From NCBI RefSeq assembly GCF_003790525.1, contig NZ_CP033635.1: a stretch of 64,000 nt of DNA; one strand, written 5' to 3'. Shown one piece after another: positions 11,174 to 61,314 of the stretch. Numbering within the stretch: the first letter of the stretch is position 1; every line of letters starts with the position of its first letter. This stretch comes from Escherichia coli (GTDB lineage: Bacteria > Pseudomonadota > Gammaproteobacteria > Enterobacterales > Enterobacteriaceae). Position numbers and translations under genes: made by a program. The notes beneath the pieces were generated by a model. That model did not search any database. It was given only the letters and a program-made list of their open reading frames with translations, and was not told the origin of the DNA.

Positions 11174-12271
11174 GTGATTAAATTTCTCTCTGCATTAATT
11201 CTTCTACTGGTTACGACGGCGGTTCAGGCTGAGCGTATTCGCGATCTCACCAGTGTTCAGGGGGTAAGGCAAAACTCACTGATTGGCTATGGCCTGGTGG
11301 TGGGGCTGGATGGCACCGGTGACCAGACAACTCAGACGCCGTTTACCACACAAACGCTTAATAACATGCTCTCACAGCTGGGAATTACCGTTCCGACGGG
11401 CACCAATATGCAGCTAAAAAACGTCGCTGCGGTAATGGTGACGGCGTCACTTCCACCGTTTGGACGCCAGGGGCAAACCATTGACGTGGTGGTTTCTTCC
11501 ATGGGAAATGCCAAAAGTCTGCGTGGCGGTACGTTATTGATGACACCGCTTAAGGGCGTTGACAGTCAGGTGTATGCGCTGGCACAGGGCAATATTCTGG
11601 TTGGCGGCGCAGGGGCCTCCGCTGGCGGTAGCAGTGTTCAGGTGAACCAACTGAACGGTGGACGGATCACCAATGGTGCGGTTATTGAACGTGAATTGCC
11701 CAGCCAGTTTGGCGTCGGGAATACCCTTAATTTGCAACTTAACGACGAAGATTTCAGTATGGCGCAGCAAATCGCTGACACCATCAACCGCGTGCGTGGA
11801 TATGGCAGCGCCACCGCGTTAGATGCGCGGACTATTCAGGTGCGCGTACCGAGTGGCAACAGTTCCCAGGTCCGTTTCCTTGCCGATATCCAGAATATGC
11901 AGGTTAATGTTACCCCGCAGGACGCTAAAGTAGTGATTAACTCGCGCACTGGTTCGGTGGTGATGAATCGCGAAGTGACCCTCGACAGCTGCGCGGTAGC
12001 GCAGGGGAATCTCTCGGTTACGGTAAATCGGCAGGCCAATGTCAGCCAGCCAGATACACCGTTTGGTGGCGGGCAGACTGTGGTTACTCCACAAACGCAG
12101 ATCGATTTACGCCAGAGCGGCGGTTCGCTGCAAAGCGTACGTTCCAGCGCCAGCCTCAATAACGTGGTGCGTGCGCTCAATGCGCTGGGCGCTACGCCGA
12201 TGGATCTGATGTCCATACTGCAATCAATGCAAAGTGCGGGATGTCTGCGGGCAAAACTGGAAATCATCTGA
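11174..12271 (+). CDS. flgI: Flagellar P-ring protein FlgI
   Basis: GTG start gives 365 aa, [19 protein letters not shown] signal peptide; stop overlaps the flgJ start (TGATG). Confidence 0.93.
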
Positions 12272-13212
12272 TGATCAGCGACAGCAAACTACTGGCAAGT
12301 GCGGCCTGGGATGCACAATCGCTCAACGAACTTAAGGCGAAAGCGGGCGAAGATCCGGCGGCAAATATCCGTCCGGTGGCCCGCCAGGTGGAAGGGATGT
12401 TCGTGCAGATGATGTTGAAAAGCATGCGCGACGCTTTACCAAAAGATGGCCTGTTCAGCAGCGAGCACACTCGCCTGTATACCAGTATGTATGACCAGCA
12501 GATTGCCCAACAGATGACGGCGGGCAAAGGTCTGGGGCTGGCAGAGATGATGGTTAAACAGATGACGCCAGAACAACCATTGCCAGAGGAGTCCATGCCA
12601 GCAGCACCGATGAAATTCCCGCTCGAAACCGTGGTGCGTTATCAAAATCAGACGCTTTCGCAGCTGGTGCAAAAGGCCGTACCACGTAACTACGATGATT
12701 CGCTGCCGGGTGACAGTAAAGCATTCCTCGCGCAACTCTCGTTGCCCGCCCAACTGGCAAGCCAGCAAAGCGGTGTGCCACATCATTTGATCTTCGCTCA
12801 GGCGGCGCTGGAATCTGGCTGGGGACAACGGCAAATCCGCCGTGAAAACGGCGAGCCGAGCTATAACCTGTTTGGCGTCAAAGCCTCTGGCAACTGGAAA
12901 GGGCCAGTCACTGAAATCACCACGACTGAATATGAAAATGGCGAAGCGAAGAAAGTAAAAGCGAAGTTTCGGGTCTACAGCTCGTATCTGGAAGCATTGT
13001 CGGATTACGTTGGGCTGTTAACGCGTAACCCGCGCTACGCCGCCGTGACGACCGCCGCGAGTGCGGAGCAGGGGGCGCAGGCCCTACAGGACGCGGGCTA
13101 TGCCACCGATCCTCACTATGCCCGCAAACTCACCAGCATGATTCAGCAGATGAAATCGATAAGCGACAAGGTGAGCAAAACCTACAGCATGAACATTGAT
13201 AATCTGTTCTGA
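12271..13212 (+). CDS. flgJ: Flagellar rod assembly protein / peptidoglycan hydrolase FlgJ
   Basis: Internal Met [14 protein letters not shown] gives 313 aa; C-terminal glucosaminidase-like region. Confidence 0.92.
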   Translation: MISDSKLLASAAWDAQSLNELKAKAGEDPAANIRPVARQVEGMFVQMMLKSMRDALPKDGLFSSEHTRLYTSMYDQQIAQQMTAGKGLGLAEMMVKQMTPEQPLPEESMPAAPMKFPLETVVRYQNQTLSQLVQKAVPRNYDDSLPGDSKAFLAQLSLPAQLASQQSGVPHHLIFAQAALESGWGQRQIRRENGEPSYNLFGVKASGNWKGPVTEITTTEYENGEAKKVKAKFRVYSSYLEALSDYVGLLTRNPRYAAVTTAASAEQGAQALQDAGYATDPHYARKLTSMIQQMKSISDKVSKTYSMNIDNLF

Positions 13213-28930: not shown

Positions 28931-29002
28931 CTTAGCTTTTATTCCGACTTGTTCCGTAGTGAACATGCTGCCACACTAACAATTCTCTGATAAGGAGCCG
29001 GT

Positions 29003-29812
29003 ATGTTCTTAATTAACGGTCATAAGCAGGAATCGCTGGCAGTAAGCGATCGGGCAACGCAGTTTGGTGATGGTTGTTTTACCACCGCCAGAGTTATCGA
29101 CGGTAAAGTCAGTTTGTTATCGGCGCATATCCAGCGACTACAGGATGCTTGTCAGCGGTTGATGATTTCCTGTGACTTCTGGCCTCAGCTTGAACTAGAG
29201 ATGAAAACGCTGGCAGCAGAACAGCAAAATGGTGTGCTGAAAGTGGTGATCAGTCGCGGTAGTGGCGGGCGAGGATACAGCACATTGAACAGCGGACCGG
29301 CAACGCGGATTCTCTCCGTTACGGTTTATCCCGCACATTACGACCGTTTGCGTAACGAGGGGATGACGTTGGCGCTAAGCCCGGTGCGGCTGGGGCGCAA
29401 TCCTCATCTGGCAGGTATTAAACATCTTAATCGGCTTGAGCAAGTATTGATCCGCTCTCATCTTGAGCAGACAAACGCTGATGAGGCGCTGGTCCTTGAC
29501 AGCGAAGGGTGGGTTACGGAATGCTGTGCGGCTAATTTGTTCTGGCGGAAGGGCAACGTAGTTTATACGCCGCGACTGGATCAGGCAGGTGTTAACGGCA
29601 TTATGCGACAATTCTGTATCCGTTTACTGGCACAATCCTCTTATCAGCTTGTCGAAGTGCAAGCCTCGCTGGAGGAGGCGTTGCAGGCAGATGAGATGGT
29701 TATTTGTAATGCGTTAATGCCAGTGATGCCCGTACGTGCCTGTGGCGATGTCTCCTTTTCGTCAGCAACGTTATATGAATATTTAGCCCCACTTTGTGAG
29801 CGCCCGAATTAG
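29003..29812 (+). CDS. pabC: Aminodeoxychorismate lyase
   Basis: 269 aa ORF; sequence match. Confidence 0.92.
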
Positions 29813-29814
29813 TC

Positions 29815-30837
29815 ATGAAAAAAGTGTTATTGATTATCTTGTTATTGCTGGTGGTACTGGGTATCGCCGCTGGTGTGGGCGTCTGGAAGGTTCGCCATCT
29901 TGCCGACAGCAAATTGCTTATCAAAGAAGAGACGATATTTACCCTGAAGGCTGGGACCGGACGTCTGGCGCTCGGTGAACAGCTTTATGCCGATAAGATC
30001 ATCAATCGCCCACGGGTTTTCCAATGGCTGCTGCGTATCGAACCGGATCTTTCTCACTTTAAAGCCGGGACTTACCGCTTTACACCGCAGATGACCGTGC
30101 GCGAGATGCTGAAATTGCTGGAAAGCGGTAAAGAAGCACAGTTCCCTCTGCGACTGGTAGAAGGGATGCGTCTGAGCGATTACCTCAAGCAATTGCGTGA
30201 GGCCCCGTATATCAAGCATACGCTGAGCGACGATAAGTACGCCACCGTAGCGCAGGCACTTGAACTGGAAAACCCAGAGTGGATTGAAGGTTGGTTCTGG
30301 CCAGACACCTGGATGTATACCGCCAATACCACCGATGTCGCGTTACTCAAGCGAGCGCACAAGAAAATGGTGAAAGCGGTCGATAGCGCCTGGGAAGGGC
30401 GTGCGGACGGTCTGCCCTATAAAGATAAAAACCAGCTGGTGACGATGGCATCAATTATCGAAAAAGAAACCGCCGTTGCCAGTGAACGCGATCAGGTTGC
30501 CTCGGTATTTATCAACCGGTTACGCATTGGTATGCGCCTGCAGACCGACCCGACCGTGATTTACGGGATGGGAGAGCGTTATAATGGCAAACTTTCTCGT
30601 GCAGACCTGGAAACGCCGACAGCGTATAACACCTATACCATTACCGGTTTGCCGCCAGGTGCAATAGCTACGCCGGGGGCGGATTCGCTGAAGGCTGCTG
30701 CGCATCCGGCAAAAACGCCGTATCTCTATTTTGTGGCCGATGGTAAAGGTGGTCACACGTTTAATACCAATCTTGCCAGTCATAACAAGTCTGTGCAGGA
30801 TTATCTGAAAGTGCTTAAGGAAAAAAATGCGCAGTAA
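29815..30837 (+). CDS. mltG: Endolytic murein transglycosylase MltG (YceG)
   Basis: 340 aa with N-terminal transmembrane segment; overlaps the tmk start by 11 nt. Confidence 0.92.
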
Positions 30838-31468
30838 GTATATCGTCATTGAGGGGCTGGAAGGCGCAGGCAAAACTACCGCGCGTAACGTGGTGGTTGA
30901 GACGCTCGAGCAACTGGGTATCCGCGACATGGTTTTCACTCGGGAACCTGGCGGTACGCAACTTGCCGAAAAGTTAAGAAGCCTGGTGCTGGATATCAAA
31001 TCGGTAGGCGATGAAGTCATTACCGATAAAGCCGAAGTTCTGATGTTTTATGCCGCGCGCGTTCAACTGGTAGAAACGGTCATCAAACCAGCGCTGGCTA
31101 ACGGCACTTGGGTGATTGGCGATCGCCACGATCTCTCCACTCAGGCGTATCAGGGCGGCGGACGTGGTATTGACCAACATATGCTGGCAACATTGCGTGA
31201 TGCTGTTCTCGGGGATTTTCGCCCCGACTTAACGCTCTATCTCGATGTTACCCCGGAAGTTGGCTTAAAACGTGCGCGTGCTCGCGGCGAGCTGGATCGT
31301 ATTGAGCAAGAGTCTTTCGATTTCTTTAATCGCACCCGCGCCCGCTATCTGGAACTGGCAGCACAAGATAAAAGCATTCATACCATTGATGCCACCCAGC
31401 CGCTGGAGTCCGTGATGGATGCAATCCGCACTACCGTGACCAATTGGGTGAAGGAGTTGGACGCATGA
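30827..31468 (+). CDS. tmk: Thymidylate kinase
   Basis: 213 aa; P-loop GLEGAGKTT. Confidence 0.95.
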
Positions 31469-32469
31469 GATGGTATCCATGGTTACGACCTGATTTCGAA
31501 AAACTGGTAGCCAGCTATCAGGCCGGAAGAGGTCACCATGCGCTACTCATTCAGGCGTTACCGGGTATGGGCGAGGATGCTTTAATCTACGCCCTGAGCC
31601 GTTATTTACTCTGCCAACAACCGCAGGGCCACAAAAGTTGCGGTCACTGTCGTGGATGTCAGTTGATGCAGGCTGGTACGCATCCCGATTATTACACCCT
31701 GGCTCCCGAGAAAGGGAAAAATGCGCTGGGCATTGATGCGGTACGTGAAGTCACCGAAAAGTTAAATGAGCACGCACGTTTAGGTGGTGCGAAAGTTGTC
31801 TGGGTAACCGATGCTGCCTTACTGACCGACGCCGCGGCTAACGCATTGCTGAAAACGCTTGAAGAGCCACCAGCAGAAACCTGGTTTTTCCTGGCTACCC
31901 GCGAGCCTGAACGTTTACTGGCAACATTACGTAGTCGTTGTCGGTTACATTACCTTGCGCCGCCGCCGGAACAGTACGCCGTGACCTGGCTTTCACGCGA
32001 AGTGACAATGTCACAGGATGCATTACTTGCCGCATTGCGCTTAAGCGCCGGTTCGCCTGGCGCGGCACTGGCGTTGTTTCAGGGAGATAACTGGCAGGCT
32101 CGTGAAACATTGTGTCAGGCGTTGGCATATAGCGTGCCATCGGGCGACTGGTATTCGCTGCTGGCGGCCCTTAATCATGAACAAGCTCCGGCGCGTTTAC
32201 ACTGGCTGGCAACGTTGCTGATGGATGCGCTAAAACGCCATCATGGCGCTGCGCAGGTGACCAATGTTGATGTGCCGGGCCTGGTCGTCGAACTGGCAAA
32301 CCATCTATCTCCCTCGCGCCTGCAGGCTATACTGGGGGATGTTTGCCACATTCGTGAACAGTTAATGTCTGTCACAGGCATCAACCGCGAGCTTCTCATC
32401 ACCGATCTTTTACTGCGTATTGAGCATTACCTGCAACCGGGCGTTGTGCTACCGGTTCCTCATCTTTAA
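31465..32469 (+). CDS. holB: DNA polymerase III delta-prime subunit
   Basis: Start [14 protein letters not shown] gives 334 aa; ATGA overlap with the tmk stop. Confidence 0.92.
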
Positions 32470-32479
32470 GAGAGACATC

Positions 32480-33277
32480 ATGTTTTTAGTCGACTCACAC
32501 TGCCATCTCGATGGTCTGGATTATGAATCTTTGCATAAGGACGTGGATGACGTTCTGGCGAAAGCCGCCGCACGCGATGTGAAATTTTGTCTGGCAGTCG
32601 CCACAACATTACCGGGTTATTTACACATGCGGGATCTGGTAGGCGAACGTGACAACGTCGTATTTTCTTGTGGCGTGCATCCACTCAACCAGAATGATCC
32701 CTACGATGTAGAAGATTTACGCCGTCTGGCGGCAGAAGAGGGCGTTGTTGCGCTGGGTGAAACCGGGCTGGATTATTATTACACGCCGGAAACTAAAGTA
32801 CGTCAGCAAGAGTCCTTCATCCATCATATCCAGATTGGTCGTGAACTGAACAAGCCGGTTATCGTCCACACCCGTGACGCCCGCGCCGATACGCTGGCAA
32901 TTCTGCGCGAAGAAAAAGTGACGGATTGCGGTGGCGTACTACACTGTTTTACAGAGGATAGAGAAACGGCGGGTAAATTACTGGATCTCGGATTTTACAT
33001 CTCCTTTTCCGGCATTGTGACCTTCCGTAATGCGGAGCAACTGCGCGATGCTGCGCGTTATGTCCCCCTGGATCGGTTACTGGTGGAAACTGACTCACCT
33101 TACCTTGCGCCGGTACCGCATCGAGGAAAAGAGAATCAACCTGCGATGGTTCGTGACGTTGCAGAATACATGGCTGTGTTGAAAGGTGTTGCCGTTGAAG
33201 AACTGGCGCAGGTAACCACCGATAACTTCGCCCGTCTGTTTCACATCGACGCTTCCCGCCTTCAATCCATCCGTTGA
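32480..33277 (+). CDS. ycfH: TatD-family metal-dependent DNase YcfH
   Basis: Start [11 protein letters not shown] gives 265 aa (ORF opens at 32420). Confidence 0.9.
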
Positions 33278-33451
33278 ATGAGTTTTTTTAAAGCTCGTAA
33301 TTAATGGCTAAAACGAGTAAAGTTCACCGCCGAAAATTGGGCGGTGAATAACCACGTTTGAAATATTGTGACATATGTTTTGTCAAAATGTGCAACTTCT
33401 CCAATGATCTGAAGTTGAAACGTGATAGCCGTCAAACAAATCGGCACTGAA

Positions 33452-33478
33452 TTATTTTACTCTGTGTAATAAATAAAG
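33452..33478. promoter_or_regulatory. Mlc (DgsA) operator palindrome in the ptsG promoter region
   Basis: TTATTTTACTCTGTGTAATAAATAA palindrome about 95-120 bp upstream of the ptsG ATG; matches the known Mlc operator form. Confidence 0.6.
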
Positions 33479-33571
33479 GGCGCTTAGATGCCCTGTACAC
33501 GGCGAGGCTCTCCCCCCTTGCCACGCGTGAGAACGTAAAAAAAGCACCCATACTCAGGAGCACTCTCAATT

Positions 33572-35005
33572 ATGTTTAAGAATGCATTTGCTAACCTGCA
33601 AAAGGTCGGTAAATCGCTGATGCTGCCGGTATCCGTACTGCCTATCGCAGGTATTCTGCTGGGCGTCGGTTCCGCGAATTTCAGCTGGCTGCCCGCCGTT
33701 GTATCGCATGTTATGGCAGAAGCAGGCGGTTCCGTCTTTGCAAACATGCCACTGATTTTTGCGATCGGTGTCGCCCTCGGCTTTACCAATAACGATGGCG
33801 TATCCGCGCTGGCCGCAGTTGTTGCCTATGGCATCATGGTTAAAACCATGGCCGTGGTTGCGCCACTGGTACTGCATTTACCTGCTGAAGAAATTGCCTC
33901 TAAACACCTGGCGGATACTGGCGTACTCGGGGGGATTATCTCCGGTGCGATCGCAGCGTACATGTTTAACCGTTTCTACCGTATTAAGCTGCCTGAGTAT
34001 CTTGGCTTCTTTGCCGGTAAACGCTTTGTGCCGATCATTTCTGGCCTGGCTGCCATCTTTACTGGCGTTGTGCTGTCCTTCATTTGGCCGCCGATTGGTT
34101 CTGCAATCCAGACCTTCTCTCAGTGGGCTGCTTACCAGAACCCGGTAGTTGCGTTTGGCATTTACGGTTTCATCGAACGTTGCCTGGTACCGTTTGGTCT
34201 GCACCACATCTGGAACGTACCTTTCCAGATGCAAATTGGTGAATACACCAACGCAGCAGGTCAGGTTTTCCACGGCGACATTCCGCGTTATATGGCGGGT
34301 GACCCGACTGCGGGTAAACTGTCTGGTGGCTTCCTGTTCAAAATGTACGGTCTGCCAGCTGCCGCAATTGCTATCTGGCACTCTGCTAAACCAGAAAACC
34401 GCGCGAAAGTGGGCGGTATTATGATCTCCGCGGCGCTGACCTCGTTCCTGACCGGTATCACCGAGCCGATCGAGTTCTCCTTCATGTTCGTTGCGCCGAT
34501 CCTGTACATCATCCACGCGATTCTGGCAGGCCTGGCATTCCCAATCTGTATTCTTTTGGGGATGCGTGACGGTACGTCGTTCTCGCACGGTCTGATCGAC
34601 TTCATCGTTCTGTCTGGTAACAGCAGCAAACTGTGGCTGTTCCCGATCGTCGGTATCGGTTATGCGATTGTTTACTACACCATCTTCCGCGTGCTGATTA
34701 AAGCACTGGATCTGAAAACGCCGGGTCGTGAAGACGCGACTGAAGACGCAAAAGCGACAGGTACCAGCGAAATGGCACCGGCTCTGGTTGCTGCATTTGG
34801 TGGTAAAGAAAACATTACTAACCTCGACGCATGTATTACCCGTCTGCGCGTCAGCGTTGCTGATGTGTCTAAAGTGGATCAGGCTGGCCTGAAGAAACTG
34901 GGCGCAGCGGGCGTAGTGGTTGCTGGTTCTGGTGTTCAGGCGATTTTCGGTACTAAATCCGATAACCTGAAAACCGAGATGGATGAGTACATCCGTAACC
35001 ACTAA
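33572..35005 (+). CDS. ptsG: Glucose-specific PTS enzyme IICB
   Basis: 477 aa; [27 protein letters not shown]. Confidence 0.97.

Positions 35006-38962: not shown

Positions 38963-38982
<20 letters not shown>
38341..38982 (+). CDS. lpoB: Outer-membrane lipoprotein activator of PBP1B, LpoB
   Basis: 213 aa from the second Met; lipobox LAGC; Pro-rich linker. Confidence 0.9.
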
Positions 38983-41394: not shown

Positions 41395-41520
<126 letters not shown>

Positions 41521-41787
41521 CGCCCTCCATACACACCTCACTCTATATCATTCTCACAAATCAGCTCAAATAATAAACAACAAACTCTGTTTTTTGATCT
41601 CACCCGGTAAAGTCGCCTATCTTTTCAGCAACAAAACTTGATTAACATCAATTTTGGTATGACCAATGCACCATTCATGTTATTCTCATTAGCGAAGAAC
41701 ATTTTCATTGCTGTAACCTGTTGTTAATTAAGAGCTATGTTAATAACTATTAGTTAACAATTGGTTAATAAATTTAAGGGGGTCACG

Positions 41788-43092: not shown

Positions 43093-43104
43093 TCGGCTTG
43101 TACT

Positions 43105-43195
43105 GGCGGATGGGGCATAAACGCCTCATCCGCCCTGGACAAATGGTACGAGCGGTAGGCCTGATAAGACGCGTTAAGCGTCGCATCAGGCATTC
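43105..43195. repeat. REP element(s) downstream of ndh
   Basis: ggcggatg...catccgcc hairpin and ggtaggcctgataagacgcgttaagcgtcgcatcaggc REP unit. Confidence 0.7.
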
Positions 43196-43318
43196 CTTCA
43201 GACTCCTCCGAATCCTTAAGTATTTCCAGCCATTCTCGCGCTTTTCATCTTCTGTCTGATAGCTGCTTTTCTCCTTCGCTTGCATGATTGGCATAACTGC
43301 AAAGAAGGAGGTGTTCCC

Positions 43319-51035: not shown

Positions 51036-54284
<3,249 letters not shown>

Positions 54285-56198: not shown

Positions 56199-56987
56199 TT
56201 ACCGTTTACTCGTCCATAGTAACGCGGCAATAAACGTACAGACACCAATCAGCCCTGCCCAGAGTGGCGATATTCTGGTAATCGCAAAGCTGTTATCGAT
56301 ATACAAACATAAAGCCTGATAACCCATATTGGCAACAGCCATCGCCACTGCAAATTTTAACGCATAATAAAGGCGCGTTGTGTAGTTAAAAAATGCAGCA
56401 AAGACGATGAATGCAACTGCCCAGGCAAAAAGGCCTAATGTCGTGGTACTGCCGGGTGGATCATTTTCATGCTGTTGTCCGGGATGCGGATAATATGTCA
56501 GTGGCGGCGTCGGTTGTTTTAATATCTGTGCTTGTAAAACAGCCAATGCATTATTGATTCCCTGATACCAGAGATCTGCATGTAAATAAGCCAGAGTGTG
56601 ATTTTCTACCAGAAGGCCGAGATGTTTATCGTCCATACTGCTTTCGACCTGGCCGTTGGTTATCATAATTAACCGTGGCTCGCGGGTAGTAAAGAGTAAC
56701 AGAATACTTCCTTTTACATTACTCATTGAAGATGCCGCATGCGCCAGCATCGCTTTGCCATTTTGCCTGAGACTGGCTTCATTATTAATGTCGGGTAAAA
56801 CCACAATAAACGGTACAACTCCGGTTTGTTGGCGAAAAAGTTCGGCTTTATGCGCGATCTCTTCAGCATCTGGTACAGTACCGGTAACATCCGTAAAAAG
56901 TGTCTTCATTATTGGAATTAAGGGCTTACTGATTGCCGTCAGAGGCAGGAACATCAGTAAACTGAGCAGTATCATGATTTTTTTCAT
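56199..56987 (-). CDS. ycfZ: Inner-membrane protein YcfZ
   Basis: 262 aa with signal/transmembrane regions. Confidence 0.88.
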
Positions 56988-57502: not shown

Positions 57503-58549
57503 TTAACGTCCTGCTTTCAGCTTCTGATAATACTCTTCATAAATGCTGCTGGCTGCGCCAACGTCATTCTGCCATTCACCATTTTTAATGGTTTCAGCAT
57601 CCGGGTAGAGCGTTTTGTCGTTCGCCACTTCAGGACTTAACAGCTTACGCGCCGCAAGGTTTGGCGTTGGATAACCGATAGTTTCAGCAACCTGTTTTGC
57701 CACATCGGGGCGCAGCAGGAAGTTGATCAATTTCAGCGCACCTTCTTTGTTTTTGGCATTTGCCGGGATCGCCAGGCTGTCCATCCAGAAAATGCCGCCT
57801 TCTTTCGGCCACACCACGTCAATTGGCGTACCCGCCTGCCGTGCAACGAAAGCAGAACCGTTCCAGATCATGCCGAGGTTAACTTCGCCTTCCATGTACG
57901 GGTTAGCCGGGTTATCGGAGTTAAACGCTGCGACGTTTGGCATCAGTTTTTTCAGCTCGTTATATGCAGCTTCAATCTCTTTCGGATCGGTAGTGTTACC
58001 GGAGTAGCCCAGTTTGCGCAGCGCCATCTGGAACACTTCACGGGCATCGTCGGTCAGCAGCAGGCTGCCTTTGTACTCAGGTTTCCACAGATCGGCCCAG
58101 CTGGTGACAGATTTCGGATCCACCGCATCACCGTTAACGCCAATCGCCGTCGCACCCCAGATATACGGAATGGAGTAGTCGTTATTCGGGTCAAACGGCT
58201 TGTTGAGCATGTCTGGATCGAGGTTGCTGAAATTGCTTAACTTCGACTTGTCGATCTTCTGGATCATCCCTTCTTTACGCATTTTATCGACGTAATAGGT
58301 TGAAGGAACCACCAGGTCATAGGCACCGTCTTTGTACGTTTTCAGCTTCGCGTACATGGTTTCGTTCGACTCGTAAGTCGAATAGATAACCTTAATACCG
58401 GTTTCTTTGGTGAACTGTTCAAGCAGTCCTGGCGGCACGTACTCGGTCCAGTTGTAGAAATACAGCGTGTTGTTGTCATCGGCGTGAGCGGCGCTCATGC
58501 CCAGTGCCAGAGCACCCGCCGCGAGCAGGTGGCGTGACCATTTTTTCAT
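57503..58549 (-). CDS. potD: Spermidine/putrescine ABC transporter periplasmic binding protein
   Basis: 348 aa with signal peptide; sequence match. Confidence 0.96.
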   Translation of the reverse strand: MKKWSRHLLAAGALALGMSAAHADDNNTLYFYNWTEYVPPGLLEQFTKETGIKVIYSTYESNETMYAKLKTYKDGAYDLVVPSTYYVDKMRKEGMIQKIDKSKLSNFSNLDPDMLNKPFDPNNDYSIPYIWGATAIGVNGDAVDPKSVTSWADLWKPEYKGSLLLTDDAREVFQMALRKLGYSGNTTDPKEIEAAYNELKKLMPNVAAFNSDNPANPYMEGEVNLGMIWNGSAFVARQAGTPIDVVWPKEGGIFWMDSLAIPANAKNKEGALKLINFLLRPDVAKQVAETIGYPTPNLAARKLLSPEVANDKTLYPDAETIKNGEWQNDVGAASSIYEEYYQKLKAGR

Positions 58550-59340
58550 TTAACGTCCCCTGTGTTACCTTTCGTTTTATCACGAGCAATAAGCTGGCTG
58601 GCAATTACCATCACCAGCGACAGCACCAGTAATATGGTTGCCAGCGCGTTAACTTCCGGCGATACGCCGACTTTGACCATCGAATAAATTTTTAACGGCA
58701 GAATTTCATAACTCGGCCCGGTGACAAACGAAGAAACTACCACATCGTCCATCGACAGGGTAAAGCTTAACACCCAGCCCGCCGCTACCGCTGGCATTGC
58801 CAGTGGCAGAATGATTTTTCGCAGAATGGTAAATTCGCTGGCACCGAGATCTTTCGCCGCTTCCAGCATTCGCACGTCAAAACCTTTCAGGCGCGAATAC
58901 ACTGTCACTACCACAAATGGCAGGCAGAAGGTGATATGCGAGAACAGCAGCGACCAGAAGCCAAGCTGAATACCCAGCAGCATAAACAGCACCAGCAGCG
59001 AAATCGCCATCACGATATCTGGTGACATCATCACCACAAACAGCATTCCGCTAACGAACGGCTTACCACGAAAGCGATAACGGTACAGCGCAACTGCCGT
59101 CAGTGAACCGATAAGCGTAGCAAACGTCGCCGAAAACACCGCCATTGTTAGTGAATGCTGCGCTGCCTGTAACAGGCTGTCGTTGTTCATCAGCAGGCTA
59201 TACCATTTGGTGGTAAAACCTTGCCAGTTGATGCCAAAGCGCGAGCTGTTAAAGGAGTTCACAATCAAAATAATGATTGGGATATACAGGTACGCGTAGA
59301 TAGCGGTCATAAAACCGCCGCGAAGCAGTCGACCGATCAT
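58546..59340 (-). CDS. potC: Spermidine/putrescine ABC transporter permease
   Basis: 264 aa; 4-nt overlap with potD. Confidence 0.95.
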   Translation of the reverse strand: MIGRLLRGGFMTAIYAYLYIPIIILIVNSFNSSRFGINWQGFTTKWYSLLMNNDSLLQAAQHSLTMAVFSATFATLIGSLTAVALYRYRFRGKPFVSGMLFVVMMSPDIVMAISLLVLFMLLGIQLGFWSLLFSHITFCLPFVVVTVYSRLKGFDVRMLEAAKDLGASEFTILRKIILPLAMPAVAAGWVLSFTLSMDDVVVSSFVTGPSYEILPLKIYSMVKVGVSPEVNALATILLVLSLVMVIASQLIARDKTKGNTGDVK

Positions 59341-60194
59341 TCGAGTTCCACCTTCTTATTCAGCAAACGAGAAGCGCGCCAGTAAACCAGCAACATCAGG
59401 CCCATTACGATAGTCAGCGTAATGCTGGTGGCTGCACCAAACGGCCAGTCACGAATATTGAGGAACTGTACCTTGATGACGTTACCGATCAGCAGGTTTT
59501 TCGCACCGCCCATCAGGTCGGACACATAGAACAGGCCCATCGCTGGCAGCATCACCAGCAGACATCCGGCAATAATCCCCGGCATCGTCAGTGGAATAAT
59601 GATGCGGATAAAAGTCTGTAACTTGCTGGCACCGAGATCGCGCGCCGCCTCAAGCAACGGCTTATCCAGTTTTTCGATACTGGAGTACAGCGGCATCACC
59701 ATAAACGGCAGCAGAATGTAAACCAGACCGATAATCACCGCACTGGGCGTGAACATGATGCGAATTGGTGTATCAATAACGCCCAGCCAGAGCAAAAACT
59801 CGTTGAGATAGCCTTTGGTGCTGAGGAAAATTTTCAGCCCGTAGATACGAATCAATGAGTTGGTCCAGAACGGAACAATCAGCAGAAACAGCAGCAGCGG
59901 ACGCACCTTGTGTGGCAACTTCGCCAGAAACCAGGCAAAAGGATAGCCCAGCACCAGGCAGGCGAGGGTGGCGATCAGCGCCATATTCAGCGAGTGCAAT
60001 AGCACTTCAAAATAGAGCGGATCGAGCAGACGCGTGTAGTTATCCAGCGTAAAGACCATTTTGACGAAACTGGCGTCGTCGCGGGTCAAAAAGCTGGTGC
60101 CAATGATCATCAGGTTGGGCAGAAAGACAAACAACACAAGCCAACCGACAATAGTGACAATCACTACATTCTGGAACTTACTTGTGTTCTTCAT
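59337..60194 (-). CDS. potB: Spermidine/putrescine ABC transporter permease
   Basis: 285 aa ORF (the true start may be slightly downstream); overlaps potC and potA. Confidence 0.93.
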
Positions 60195-61314
60195 CAGCCA
60201 GTACGACCTCCCAGCTTTCTACCCAATTAATGGCCATTTTTTGGTCGAGAGAGTGGTCAAAGTCAGGGTCGTCTTCATTGAAGAATTCGCTGACCATCAC
60301 CATCTTGCCATTTTCCAGTTCAACAACCGACTCCAGCGTCATGCCTTTGTAGTTACGCTCGCGAACGTAACCAATCAGCCCTTCAGCGTGGTTGTCGTCG
60401 TTAATCTCTTCAACACGTAAGTCTTCCGGGCGCAGCAGAACATGCAGTTTTTGCCCCGGTTCAACGGCGAAGTTAACGTAGATATTACATTCGCGGCCTT
60501 CAACGTTGGCGCGTACCCGCTGCTCGTCGAGACGTTCGATGACAGTGGCGTTAAACATATTGATTTCGCCAATAAACCCAGCAACAAACAGGTTTTTCGG
60601 CTCTTCATAGATTTCACGCGGCGTGCCGTCTTGCTCAATGCGACCATCGCGCATCACCACAATCCTGTCCGACATGGTGAGTGCTTCTTCCTGGTCGTGA
60701 GTCACGAAGACGAATGTAATGCCAAGCTTACGCTGTAACGCTTTCAGCTCGTTCTGCATTTGCTTGCGCAGTTTGTAATCCAGCGCTGAGAGCGACTCAT
60801 CCAGCAACAACAGACGAGGCTTGTTAACCACCGCGCGGGCAATGGCGACGCGTTGCTGTTGACCACCAGAGAGCTGATGCGGTTTGCGTTGAGCGAAGGT
60901 TTCCAGCTGCACCATCCGCAGGGCTTCCATCACGCGGGGCGTAATTTCAGCAGCGGGGGTTTTTTGCATGCGCAACCCAAAGGCCACATTTTCGAACACG
61001 GTCATGTGGGGGAAAAGTGCGTAGCTTTGGAAAACAGTATTCACATAGCGGTTTTCCGCCGGAACGTGGGTGATGTCCTCGTTATCCAGCATGATGCGTC
61101 CGGAATCAACAGTTTCCAGACCTGCAATCAGGCGAAGAACGGTTGTTTTACCGCAGCCAGAAGGGCCAAGCAGCGTGAGGAACTCGCCATTGTTGATAGT
61201 CAGATCCAGCTGGGGAATGACCTCTTTACCATCAAAGCATTTGCGAATTCCCGCCAATTGCACCAGCGGTGAAAGCGAACTCGGTTGTTTATTCAATTTT
61301 TTACTCTGTCCCAT
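60178..61314 (-). CDS. potA: Spermidine/putrescine ABC transporter ATPase
   Basis: 378 aa; Walker [10 protein letters not shown] and signature LSGGQQQR. Confidence 0.96.

Follow-up and report, generated by a model that had tools for sequence, protein, structure and literature searches.

The 64,000-nucleotide stretch of DNA analyzed here, referred to as the window, is a part of the Escherichia coli chromosome that extends from rimJ to roxA, and its positions 29000-34000 match E. coli chromosomes at 100%. Gene coordinates were transferred from RefSeq strains XDL and SMS-3-5, and each was checked for a start codon, a stop codon, and an open frame. The focal unit consists of five reading frames, pabC, mltG, tmk, holB, and ycfH, which all lie on one strand and follow each other at spacings of +2, −11, −4, and +10 nt, with negative values denoting overlaps (Table 1). 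A consensus scan of 28700-33700 yields promoter and terminator matches at or below shuffle expectation, which are uninformative as to internal promoters. On the plus strand, from pabC to the end of ycfH, no consensus promoter or terminator is found except for one weak terminator-like match inside holB. In the table of Zhao 2019, yceG (mltG), tmk, holB, and ycfH share a single operon identifier. The region from pabC to ycfH is likely a single transcription unit.

Table 1. The focal unit and the other overlapping junctions of the window (position 1 is the first letter of the window).
Feature	Position	Strand	Basis or detail
pabC	29003..29812	+	First gene of five-gene unit; RefSeq annotation, Pfam Aminotran_4
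pabC/mltG junction	29810..29817	+	TAG stop, 2 nt, ATG (TAGTCATG)
mltG (yceG)	29815..30837	+	RefSeq annotation, Pfam YceG
tmk Shine-Dalgarno motif AAGGA	30817..30821	+	Within mltG coding sequence, 5 nt before ATG, −6.1 kcal/mol
mltG/tmk 11-nt overlap	30827..30837	+	mltG stop TAA 30835-30837, tmk ATG 30827-30829
tmk (dTMP kinase, 213 aa)	30827..31468	+	Annotation, 4TMK residues 1-213, Pfam
holB Shine-Dalgarno motif AAGGAG	31451..31456	+	Within tmk coding sequence, 8 nt before ATG, −8.3 kcal/mol
tmk/holB ATGA (−4)	31465..31468	+	holB ATG 31465-31467, tmk stop TGA 31466-31468
holB (DNA polymerase III delta', 334 aa)	31465..32469	+	Annotation, 1A5T residues 1-334, Pfam
holB/ycfH 10-nt spacer	32470..32479	+	Weak AGAGA motif, −5.4 kcal/mol
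ycfH (TatD-family hydrolase)	32480..33277	+	Last gene of unit; annotation and Pfam
flgI/flgJ TGATG (−1)	12269..12273	+	RefSeq coordinates and sequence
DUF1778 antitoxin/GNAT toxin ATGA	16472..16475	−	Sequence; −4
lpoB/thiK 20-nt overlap, GTG start	38963..38982	+	RefSeq coordinates and sequence
lolC/lolD 8-nt overlap (ATGAATAA)	52339..52346	+	lolC end 52346, lolD start 52339
lolD/lolE TAATG (−1)	53038..53042	+	1-nt overlap at 53040
ymfA/ycfZ ATGA (−4)	56984..56987	−	RefSeq coordinates and sequence
potC/potD ATGA (−4)	58546..58549	−	RefSeq coordinates and sequence
potB/potC ATGA (−4)	59337..59340	−	RefSeq coordinates and sequence
potA/potB 17-nt overlap	60178..60194	−	Depends on 285-aa PotB start

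Antisense ORFs on the minus strand at 30520-31020 and 31895-32140 have no Pfam family and are treated as chance ORFs. Frameshifting at the run of seven A residues at 30821-30827, which would fuse MltG to Tmk, was rejected on reasoning, as the tmk frame is +1 and not −1 relative to mltG. MltG is a membrane/periplasmic protein, and its fusion to a cytoplasmic kinase would be senseless. An Rfam scan of the whole window returns only the rne 5′ UTR element and SraB, with no match at any junction.

Overlaps occur in 11 of the 48 co-directional gene pairs of the whole window, a share that is not clearly higher (P = 0.10) than the ~15% reported genome-wide (Burkhardt 2017; Huber 2019). The overlap content of the window is ordinary for E. 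coli. Among the 27 pairs of the window spaced −20 to +20, seven are exactly −4 or −1 (P = 2e-4 against a uniform spread), and this excess indicates that junction geometry is non-random. Spacings of −4 and −1 are the commonest between prokaryotic genes, in bacteria and archaea (Brown and Wade 2025). The first-pass annotation had listed chains of overlapping stop and start codons in the mltG-tmk-holB, flgIJ, lolCDE, and potABCD series, the last of which spans 57503-61314 on the minus strand, and all of these junctions are found in the sequence where it had placed them. The lpoB/thiK (−20), ymfA/ycfZ (−4), and DUF1778/GNAT (−4) overlaps were absent from its list. The overlaps are real but are textbook E. 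coli operon packing, which is already known. The link of −4 and −1 overlaps to translational coupling has been under study since the 1980s.

It is improbable that some overlaps are annotation artefacts with the true start codon further downstream, for which potB and thiK are the candidates. An in-frame GTG 30 nt into potB, the start used in older annotations that list PotB as 275 aa, would give a spacing of +13, and the GGGAGG located 10 nt from the potB ATG is at a long distance for a Shine-Dalgarno spacer. The thiK gene has a GTG start (−20) with a weak Shine-Dalgarno energy of −4.9 kcal/mol. Against such a revision, the 285-aa form is the one found in PDB entries of PotB, one deposited chain comprising residues 7-279. 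At the focal junctions, the explanation is inapplicable. The annotated start codons fit the deposited chain lengths of Tmk (213 aa, 4TMK) and HolB (334 aa, 1A5T), as for PotB (285 aa, 8Y5F), and for Tmk and HolB the agreement with the solved structures is exact. With the P-loop of Tmk beginning no more than 10 residues after its annotated start, there is no room for an alternative one.

Conservation of the junctions was compared across 80 Enterobacteriaceae species, the best 80 loci of a contig scan, with Tmk identity of at least 84% throughout. Within these best 80 loci, the mltG/tmk spacing is −11 in 77 of 78 species, with 47 distinct junction sequences, and the tmk/holB spacing is −4 in 78 of 79 species, with 71 distinct junction sequences. 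The segment AAGGAAAAAA is at least 90% conserved over 78 species of the same set. At tmk codon −5, 77 of 78 of these species have G in the third position, against a background of 0.34, while the residue encoded there varies among K, Q, R, E, A, and G. Retention of the third-position G while the amino acid varies indicates that the holB GGAG motif inside tmk is preserved. Judged from the near-invariant −11 and −4 spacings together with the kept GGAG, the junctions are under selection, with the spacing conservation only moderately informative because all 80 species are at least 84% identical in Tmk. The pabC/mltG junction has a spacing of +2 in 42, −4 in 25, and +1 in 8 species of the best 80 loci, with the pabC stop no more than 8 nt from the mltG start in every species. 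The non-overlapping holB/ycfH spacer is also conserved, at +10 in 68 of 77 species of the set. Overlap of tmk with holB is reported for Pseudomonas putida as well.

Shine-Dalgarno sites of −6 kcal/mol or stronger precede 7 of the 11 downstream genes of overlapping pairs, compared with 6.8% of random coding 20-mers (P = 2e-6). In the focal unit, pabC has a strong site, at −8.5 kcal/mol in the window and with a median of −8.5 across 77 species of the best 80 loci, all at −6 or below. The tmk and holB motifs are conserved in 78-79 species of that set, and because each gene has its own site, independent initiation likely contributes at both. The mltG start has an energy of −1.9 kcal/mol in the window and thus no motif, and none of 78 species among the best 80 loci reaches −6. 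The window energies likewise give no Shine-Dalgarno motif for flgJ.

Translational coupling has been studied at comparable junctions elsewhere in E. coli. In reporter tests, four of five native −4 pairs were coupled, and bioBF, a tested −4 pair, showed no coupling at all (Huber 2019). Spacings of −8 to +10 are treated as predictive of reinitiation (Huber 2023), and coupling weakens with longer overlap according to the literature. Within that range fall tmk/holB (−4), pabC/mltG (+2), holB/ycfH (+10), flgI/J (−1), lolC/D (−8), lolD/E (−1), potB/C (−4), and potC/D (−4); outside it fall mltG/tmk (−11), potA/B (−17), and lpoB/thiK (−20). The known reinitiation pairs at −4 or −1, which are trpB-trpA and the hyfHI, astDB, ydbH-ynbE, and menDH pairs (Huber 2019), share with the window pairs their co-directional genes, the ATGA or TRATG found at tmk/holB, potB/C, potC/D, flgI/J, and lolD/E, and a Shine-Dalgarno motif that lies within the coding sequence of the upstream gene. 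Unlike them, mltG/tmk, potA/B, and lpoB/thiK lie beyond the range of Huber 2023, and the papers searched contain no coupling experiment on any pair of the window. The first-pass suggestion that the overlaps point to coupling holds in so far as they are a recognized signature that was coupled in most tested −4 pairs, but it is weakened by the −11 spacing of mltG/tmk, which is out of range, and by the separate Shine-Dalgarno sites of tmk and holB. By analogy with the tested pairs, coupling at these junctions is plausible.

A competing explanation is that the overlaps are by-products of genome compaction and mutation that have no coupling role, with each downstream gene translated from its own Shine-Dalgarno site. 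When a stop codon is lost, the frame runs to the next stop, and ATGA provides a ready stop in any start codon followed by A. The pabC/mltG junction switches between its +2, +1, and −4 forms in the best 80 loci via simple substitutions, the easy evolutionary route of Brown and Wade 2025, and good Shine-Dalgarno sites are present at tmk and holB. Genome-wide, relative translation varies as much in overlapping as in non-overlapping pairs, so that overlap brings no added uniformity of translation efficiency (Burkhardt 2017). The uncoupled bioBF (Huber 2019) and the unequal protein levels of the unit (Zhao 2019) are also in keeping with by-products. Furthermore, the tmk/holB overlap was described and engineered apart in genome-recoding work with viability kept, and its exact ATGA is therefore not essential. 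What makes this explanation rather doubtful is that the −11 and −4 spacings persist in 77 of 78 and 78 of 79 species of the best 80 loci despite many nearby substitutions, and that coupling was seen in the majority of the −4 pairs tested in E. coli (Huber 2019). In addition, mltG is expressed yet has no Shine-Dalgarno motif in all 78 species of the set, so some other means of ribosome recruitment is needed.

Coupling can also operate through RNA structure. In atpH-atpA and rplK-rplA, as established in the literature for these and other E. coli pairs, a hairpin with upstream coding sequence sequesters the ribosome-binding site of the downstream gene, which is freed only by translation of the upstream gene. 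The predicted hairpins at tmk/holB and lolD/lolE resemble these cases by including the downstream ribosome-binding site or start codon. In the fold of 31405-31504, the minimum-energy and centroid structures alike pair the holB GGAG with tmk codons ~25 nt upstream, and the lolE start codon lies in a predicted stem. The window hairpins differ in being predicted only and in having a stability no greater than shuffles. None of 13 junction segments is more stable than its dinucleotide shuffles (z −1.6 to +1.3), with z-scores of −0.76 for holB, −1.6 for lolE, and −0.72 to +1.32 for the remaining junctions. Unfolding by the upstream ribosome draws no support from these folds and is an unlikely basis for coupling at these junctions.

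The first-pass annotation had further regarded the overlaps as typical of operons encoding stoichiometric complexes, which fits lolCDE and potABCD and fails for the focal unit. LolCDE is a single-transporter complex, and PotB and PotC are co-deposited in 8Y5F. As in the proportional-synthesis operons of ABC transporters, lolC/D/E and potA/B/C/D encode subunits of one transporter each, with junctions of −8, −1, −17, −4, and −4. In contrast, a YceG-family cell-wall protein (MltG), the dTMP kinase (Tmk), and the delta' subunit of the clamp loader (HolB) serve three unrelated processes and do not form one complex. PDB complexes of HolB hold tau/gamma chains and not Tmk or MltG. The complex partners of HolB, dnaX and holA, are encoded elsewhere on the chromosome. 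Heteromeric complexes account for 30.4% of E. coli pairs at −8 to +10 versus 6.8% at more than 20 nt, which makes the enrichment statistically real, and ~70% of tightly spaced pairs encode no complex (Huber 2023).

Protein levels of YceG 71, Tmk 133, HolB 36, and YcfH 125 (Zhao 2019 supplement) place MltG, Tmk, and HolB 2- to 4-fold apart and thus not equimolar. An independent data set (Mori 2021) gives mass fractions of ~2.6-4.3e-5 for MltG and ~2-2.8e-5 for HolB depending on the table, with MltG at or above HolB, and translation efficiencies are 0.92 for tmk and 1.31 for ycfH (Burkhardt 2017 supplement). The excess of Tmk over MltG and of YcfH over HolB cannot arise from reinitiation alone. 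Internal promoters, or differences in the stability of mRNA or protein, could equally account for it.

These sites are ordinary operon junctions, and the downstream genes are probably translated by a mixture of reinitiation and de novo initiation. A ribosome terminating on the upstream gene would come free only a few nucleotides from the following start codon, and in the cases of tmk and holB a Shine-Dalgarno motif inside the upstream coding sequence lies ahead of that codon. Two routes may then coexist: terminating ribosomes reinitiate (termination-reinitiation coupling), or fresh ribosomes bind the internal Shine-Dalgarno site. The proportions of the routes probably differ between junctions. 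From pabC to mltG, reinitiation would predominate because mltG has no Shine-Dalgarno motif. From mltG to tmk, de novo initiation would account for most translation, given the 11-nt back-overlap and the AAGGA of tmk itself. At tmk to holB, only a fraction of ribosomes may undergo Shine-Dalgarno-assisted reinitiation, and at holB to ycfH additional de novo initiation is envisaged. The expected outcome is co-ordinated yet unequal protein output. In lolCDE and potABCD, the same architecture serves the subunits of one transporter each.

Within this mixed mechanism, the pabC/mltG junction, which the first-pass annotation did not include, is the best candidate for obligatory reinitiation. A tentative extension is that mltG owes nearly all of its translation to ribosomes coming directly from termination on pabC, whose stop wanders among +2, +1, and −4 while never being more than 8 nt away.

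The overlaps have little significance beyond confirmed annotation. They do bear on genome design, since any synonymous recoding close to a junction has to leave the overlapping reading frame and the internal ribosome-binding sites intact. Cases in point are the G-GAG within the tmk coding sequence and the second codon of holB (AGA), which has one base in common with the tmk stop. The mltG start without a Shine-Dalgarno motif, directly after the pabC stop, would be a handy natural test case for reinitiation of this kind. If mltG does depend on ribosomes arriving from pabC, translation of a folate-pathway gene would determine how much MltG is made, and pabC-mltG-tmk-holB-ycfH would constitute a translational relay that connects folate/thymidylate supply, cell-wall synthesis, and the replication clamp loader.

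Genes were assigned by carrying the RefSeq annotations of E. coli strains XDL and SMS-3-5 over to window coordinates. They run in the order rimJ, flg operons, rne, fab cluster, pabC–mltG(yceG)–tmk–holB–ycfH, ptsG, lolCDE, potABCD, and roxA. All 64 genes were examined for start and stop codons and an open reading frame, and the DUF1778 gene alone failed. Pfam backs the identity of all five pabC–ycfH genes, and the annotated starts match deposited chain lengths for Tmk (213 aa), HolB (334 aa), and PotB (285 aa, the form in PDB entries). Segment 29000–34000 matches several complete E. coli chromosomes at 100% identity; of 5426 complete genomes of the species, 5424 carry it. The window is offset by 1 nt from strain XDL from yceH, an incomplete pseudogene in the XDL annotation, up to the DUF1778 indel. 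An RNase E autoregulatory element and the small RNA SraB score above the Rfam gathering threshold. Two long intergenic regions flanking ndh contain GC-rich palindromic stretches, such as GTCGGATAAGGCGTTCACGCCGCATCCGAC, that look like REP/BIME repeats.

Junctions and other features of the window (negative spacing, stop/start overlap in nt; positive spacing, gap in nt)
Feature	Spacing or signal	Position	Strand	First-pass annotation
pabC/mltG	+2, tight, no overlap	29810–29817	+	absent
mltG/tmk	11-nt overlap	mltG TAA 30835–30837; tmk ATG 30827–30829	+	named
tmk/holB	ATGA	tmk TGA 31466–31468; holB ATG 31465–31467	+	named
holB/ycfH	+10, tight, no overlap		+	absent
flgI/flgJ	TGATG	12269–12273	+	named
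lolC/lolD	8-nt overlap	52339–52346	+	named
lolD/lolE	TAATG		+	named
potA/potB	17-nt overlap		-	named
potB/potC	4-nt overlap		-	named
potC/potD	4-nt overlap		-	named
lpoB/thiK	-20, GTG start of thiK	38963–38982	+	absent
ymfA/ycfZ	-4, ATGA	56984–56987	-	absent
DUF1778/GNAT	-4, ATGA	16472–16475	-	absent
GNAT toxin and DUF1778 antitoxin genes	between flgL and rne	15981–16764	-	
potB ATG to in-frame GTG	30 nt downstream	60164–60194	-	
yceH	intact	1094–1741 (strain XDL locus, 1093–1737)		
RNase E 5' UTR element	upstream of rne	20096–20432	-	
SraB	between yceF and yceD	22292–22460	+	
ycfP–ndh	GC-rich palindromes	about 41400–41560		
ndh–ycfJ	GC-rich palindromes	about 43100–43230		

The first-pass annotation had proposed that overlapping stop and start codons reflect translational coupling in operons encoding stoichiometric complexes, and every junction that it named was found at its place. 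Two tight junctions complete the pabC–ycfH operon. The potA/potB spacing would change from -17 to +13 if potB started at the downstream GTG, presumably the start of an older 275-aa PotB annotation. In the GNAT/DUF1778 pair, annotated in SMS-3-5 and XDL, the DUF1778 gene carries a 1-nt deletion near 16540 (a C5 run, C6 in SMS-3-5), so that the frame from ATG 16764 misses TGA 16472–16474 and runs on to 16399. Either the antitoxin gene is genuinely frameshifted or the homopolymer was misread in sequencing.

Junction geometry in the window is non-random, since spacings of precisely -4 or -1 account for 7 of the 27 pairs between -20 and +20 (P = 2e-4, compared with a uniform distribution). Across bacteria and archaea spacing is most often -4 or -1, with a smaller peak at -8 (Brown and Wade 2025). 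Overlaps occur in 11 of 48 co-directional pairs (P = 0.10), a share that does not clearly exceed the figure of roughly 15% given for E. coli and for most prokaryotes (Burkhardt 2017; Huber 2019), and the window is not unusual.

A scan of the plus strand from pabC to the end of ycfH found no consensus promoter or convincing terminator, and one proteomics supplement gives yceG, tmk, holB, and ycfH a single operon identifier (Zhao 2019). Predicted anti-Shine-Dalgarno pairing is -8.5 kcal/mol for pabC, -1.9 for mltG, -6.1 for tmk (AAGGA, 5-nt spacer), -8.3 for holB (AAGGAG, 8-nt spacer), and -5.4 for ycfH. Random coding 20-mers of the window average -2.5, and 6.8% reach -6, a level attained by the downstream gene in 7 of 11 overlapping pairs (P = 2e-6). 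None of 13 junction RNA folds was more stable than its shuffles (z from -1.6 to +1.3); hairpins are predicted to take in the Shine-Dalgarno site of holB and the start codon of lolE.

The junctions were compared among the best 80 loci from one scan of species-representative genomes with Tmk (Enterobacteriaceae, 84–99% identical), the five genes being placed by tblastn and each frame extended to its stop. Spacing is -11 at mltG/tmk in 77 of 78 species, -4 at tmk/holB in 78 of 79, and +10 at holB/ycfH in 68 of 77, and it is kept over 47 distinct mltG/tmk and 71 distinct tmk/holB junction sequences. The tmk codon supplying the first G of the holB GGAG encodes K, Q, R, E, A, or G, depending on the species, but its third base is G in 77 of 78 species, against 0.34 for all tmk third positions; GAG follows it in 74 of 78. 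These retained bases, beside a varying amino acid, are direct evidence that the holB ribosome-binding site within tmk is under selection. The pabC/mltG spacing is -4 in 25 species, +1 in 8, +2 in 42, and otherwise in three, with the pabC stop alternating between TAG (+2) and an ATGA within the mltG start (-4), which illustrates how easily a -4 overlap may arise. A Shine-Dalgarno motif precedes the leading gene pabC in 77 of 77 species and mltG in 0 of 78 (median -1.9, with no value reaching -6). One locus (L043, CACSKA010000011.1; Tmk 86% identical) is of Enterobacteriaceae type on a contig labelled Chryseobacterium sp. 18061, which suggests that the assembly is contaminated or mislabelled.

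The tmk stop and holB codon 2 (31468–31470) share a base, the last of the stop and the first of the codon. Codon 2 is AGA, a rare arginine codon, in the window and in the loci of E. coli and E. albertii, and AAA (Lys) in the commonest junction sequences of other genera among the matches listed. Napolitano 2016 describes the overlap directly: codon 2 failed in genome-wide AGR recoding because of the shared base, as AGA to CGU makes the tmk stop Cys and appeared deleterious. An overlap of tmk with holB is also present in Pseudomonas putida, where a TGATG junction was retained when tmk was replaced by engineering.

By analogy, potential coupling is a reasonable reading of the named junctions. The attribution to stoichiometric complexes suits lolCDE and potABCD and, in our judgement, the DUF1778/GNAT pair, but not mltG, tmk, and holB, whose products serve cell-wall synthesis, nucleotide metabolism, and replication, and are not equimolar. 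Deep proteomics levels are YceG 71, Tmk 133, HolB 36, and YcfH 125 (Zhao 2019 supplement); in an independent data set, mass fractions of about 2.6–4.3e-5 for MltG and 2–2.8e-5 for HolB, depending on the table, place MltG at or above HolB (Mori 2021). Tabulated translation efficiencies are 0.92 (tmk) and 1.31 (ycfH), and relative translation varies as much in overlapping as in non-overlapping pairs (Burkhardt 2017). Four of five native E. coli -4 pairs are coupled, bioBF being without coupling (Huber 2019), and complex subunits make up 30.4% of E. coli pairs spaced -8 to +10 versus 6.8% above 20 nt (Huber 2023). Longer overlap weakens coupling faster than longer spacing does (Brown and Wade review).

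Translation of the operon is most likely a graded mixture of reinitiation and independent initiation. Given the conserved Shine-Dalgarno sites of tmk and holB and the 11-nt mltG/tmk overlap, de novo initiation probably contributes substantially. Translation of mltG would rest almost wholly on reinitiation after pabC, tmk would initiate independently for the most part, holB would receive a fraction of ribosomes by Shine-Dalgarno-assisted reinitiation, and ycfH would need extra independent initiation. Nothing here is new: the genes, overlaps, and concept have all been described before, and the tmk/holB overlap has already been engineered. The window's best candidate for obligatory reinitiation is the pabC/mltG junction, and its conserved mltG start, lacking a Shine-Dalgarno motif beside the pabC stop, is a mildly useful by-product, being a natural and clean candidate for reinitiation that dispenses with such a motif.
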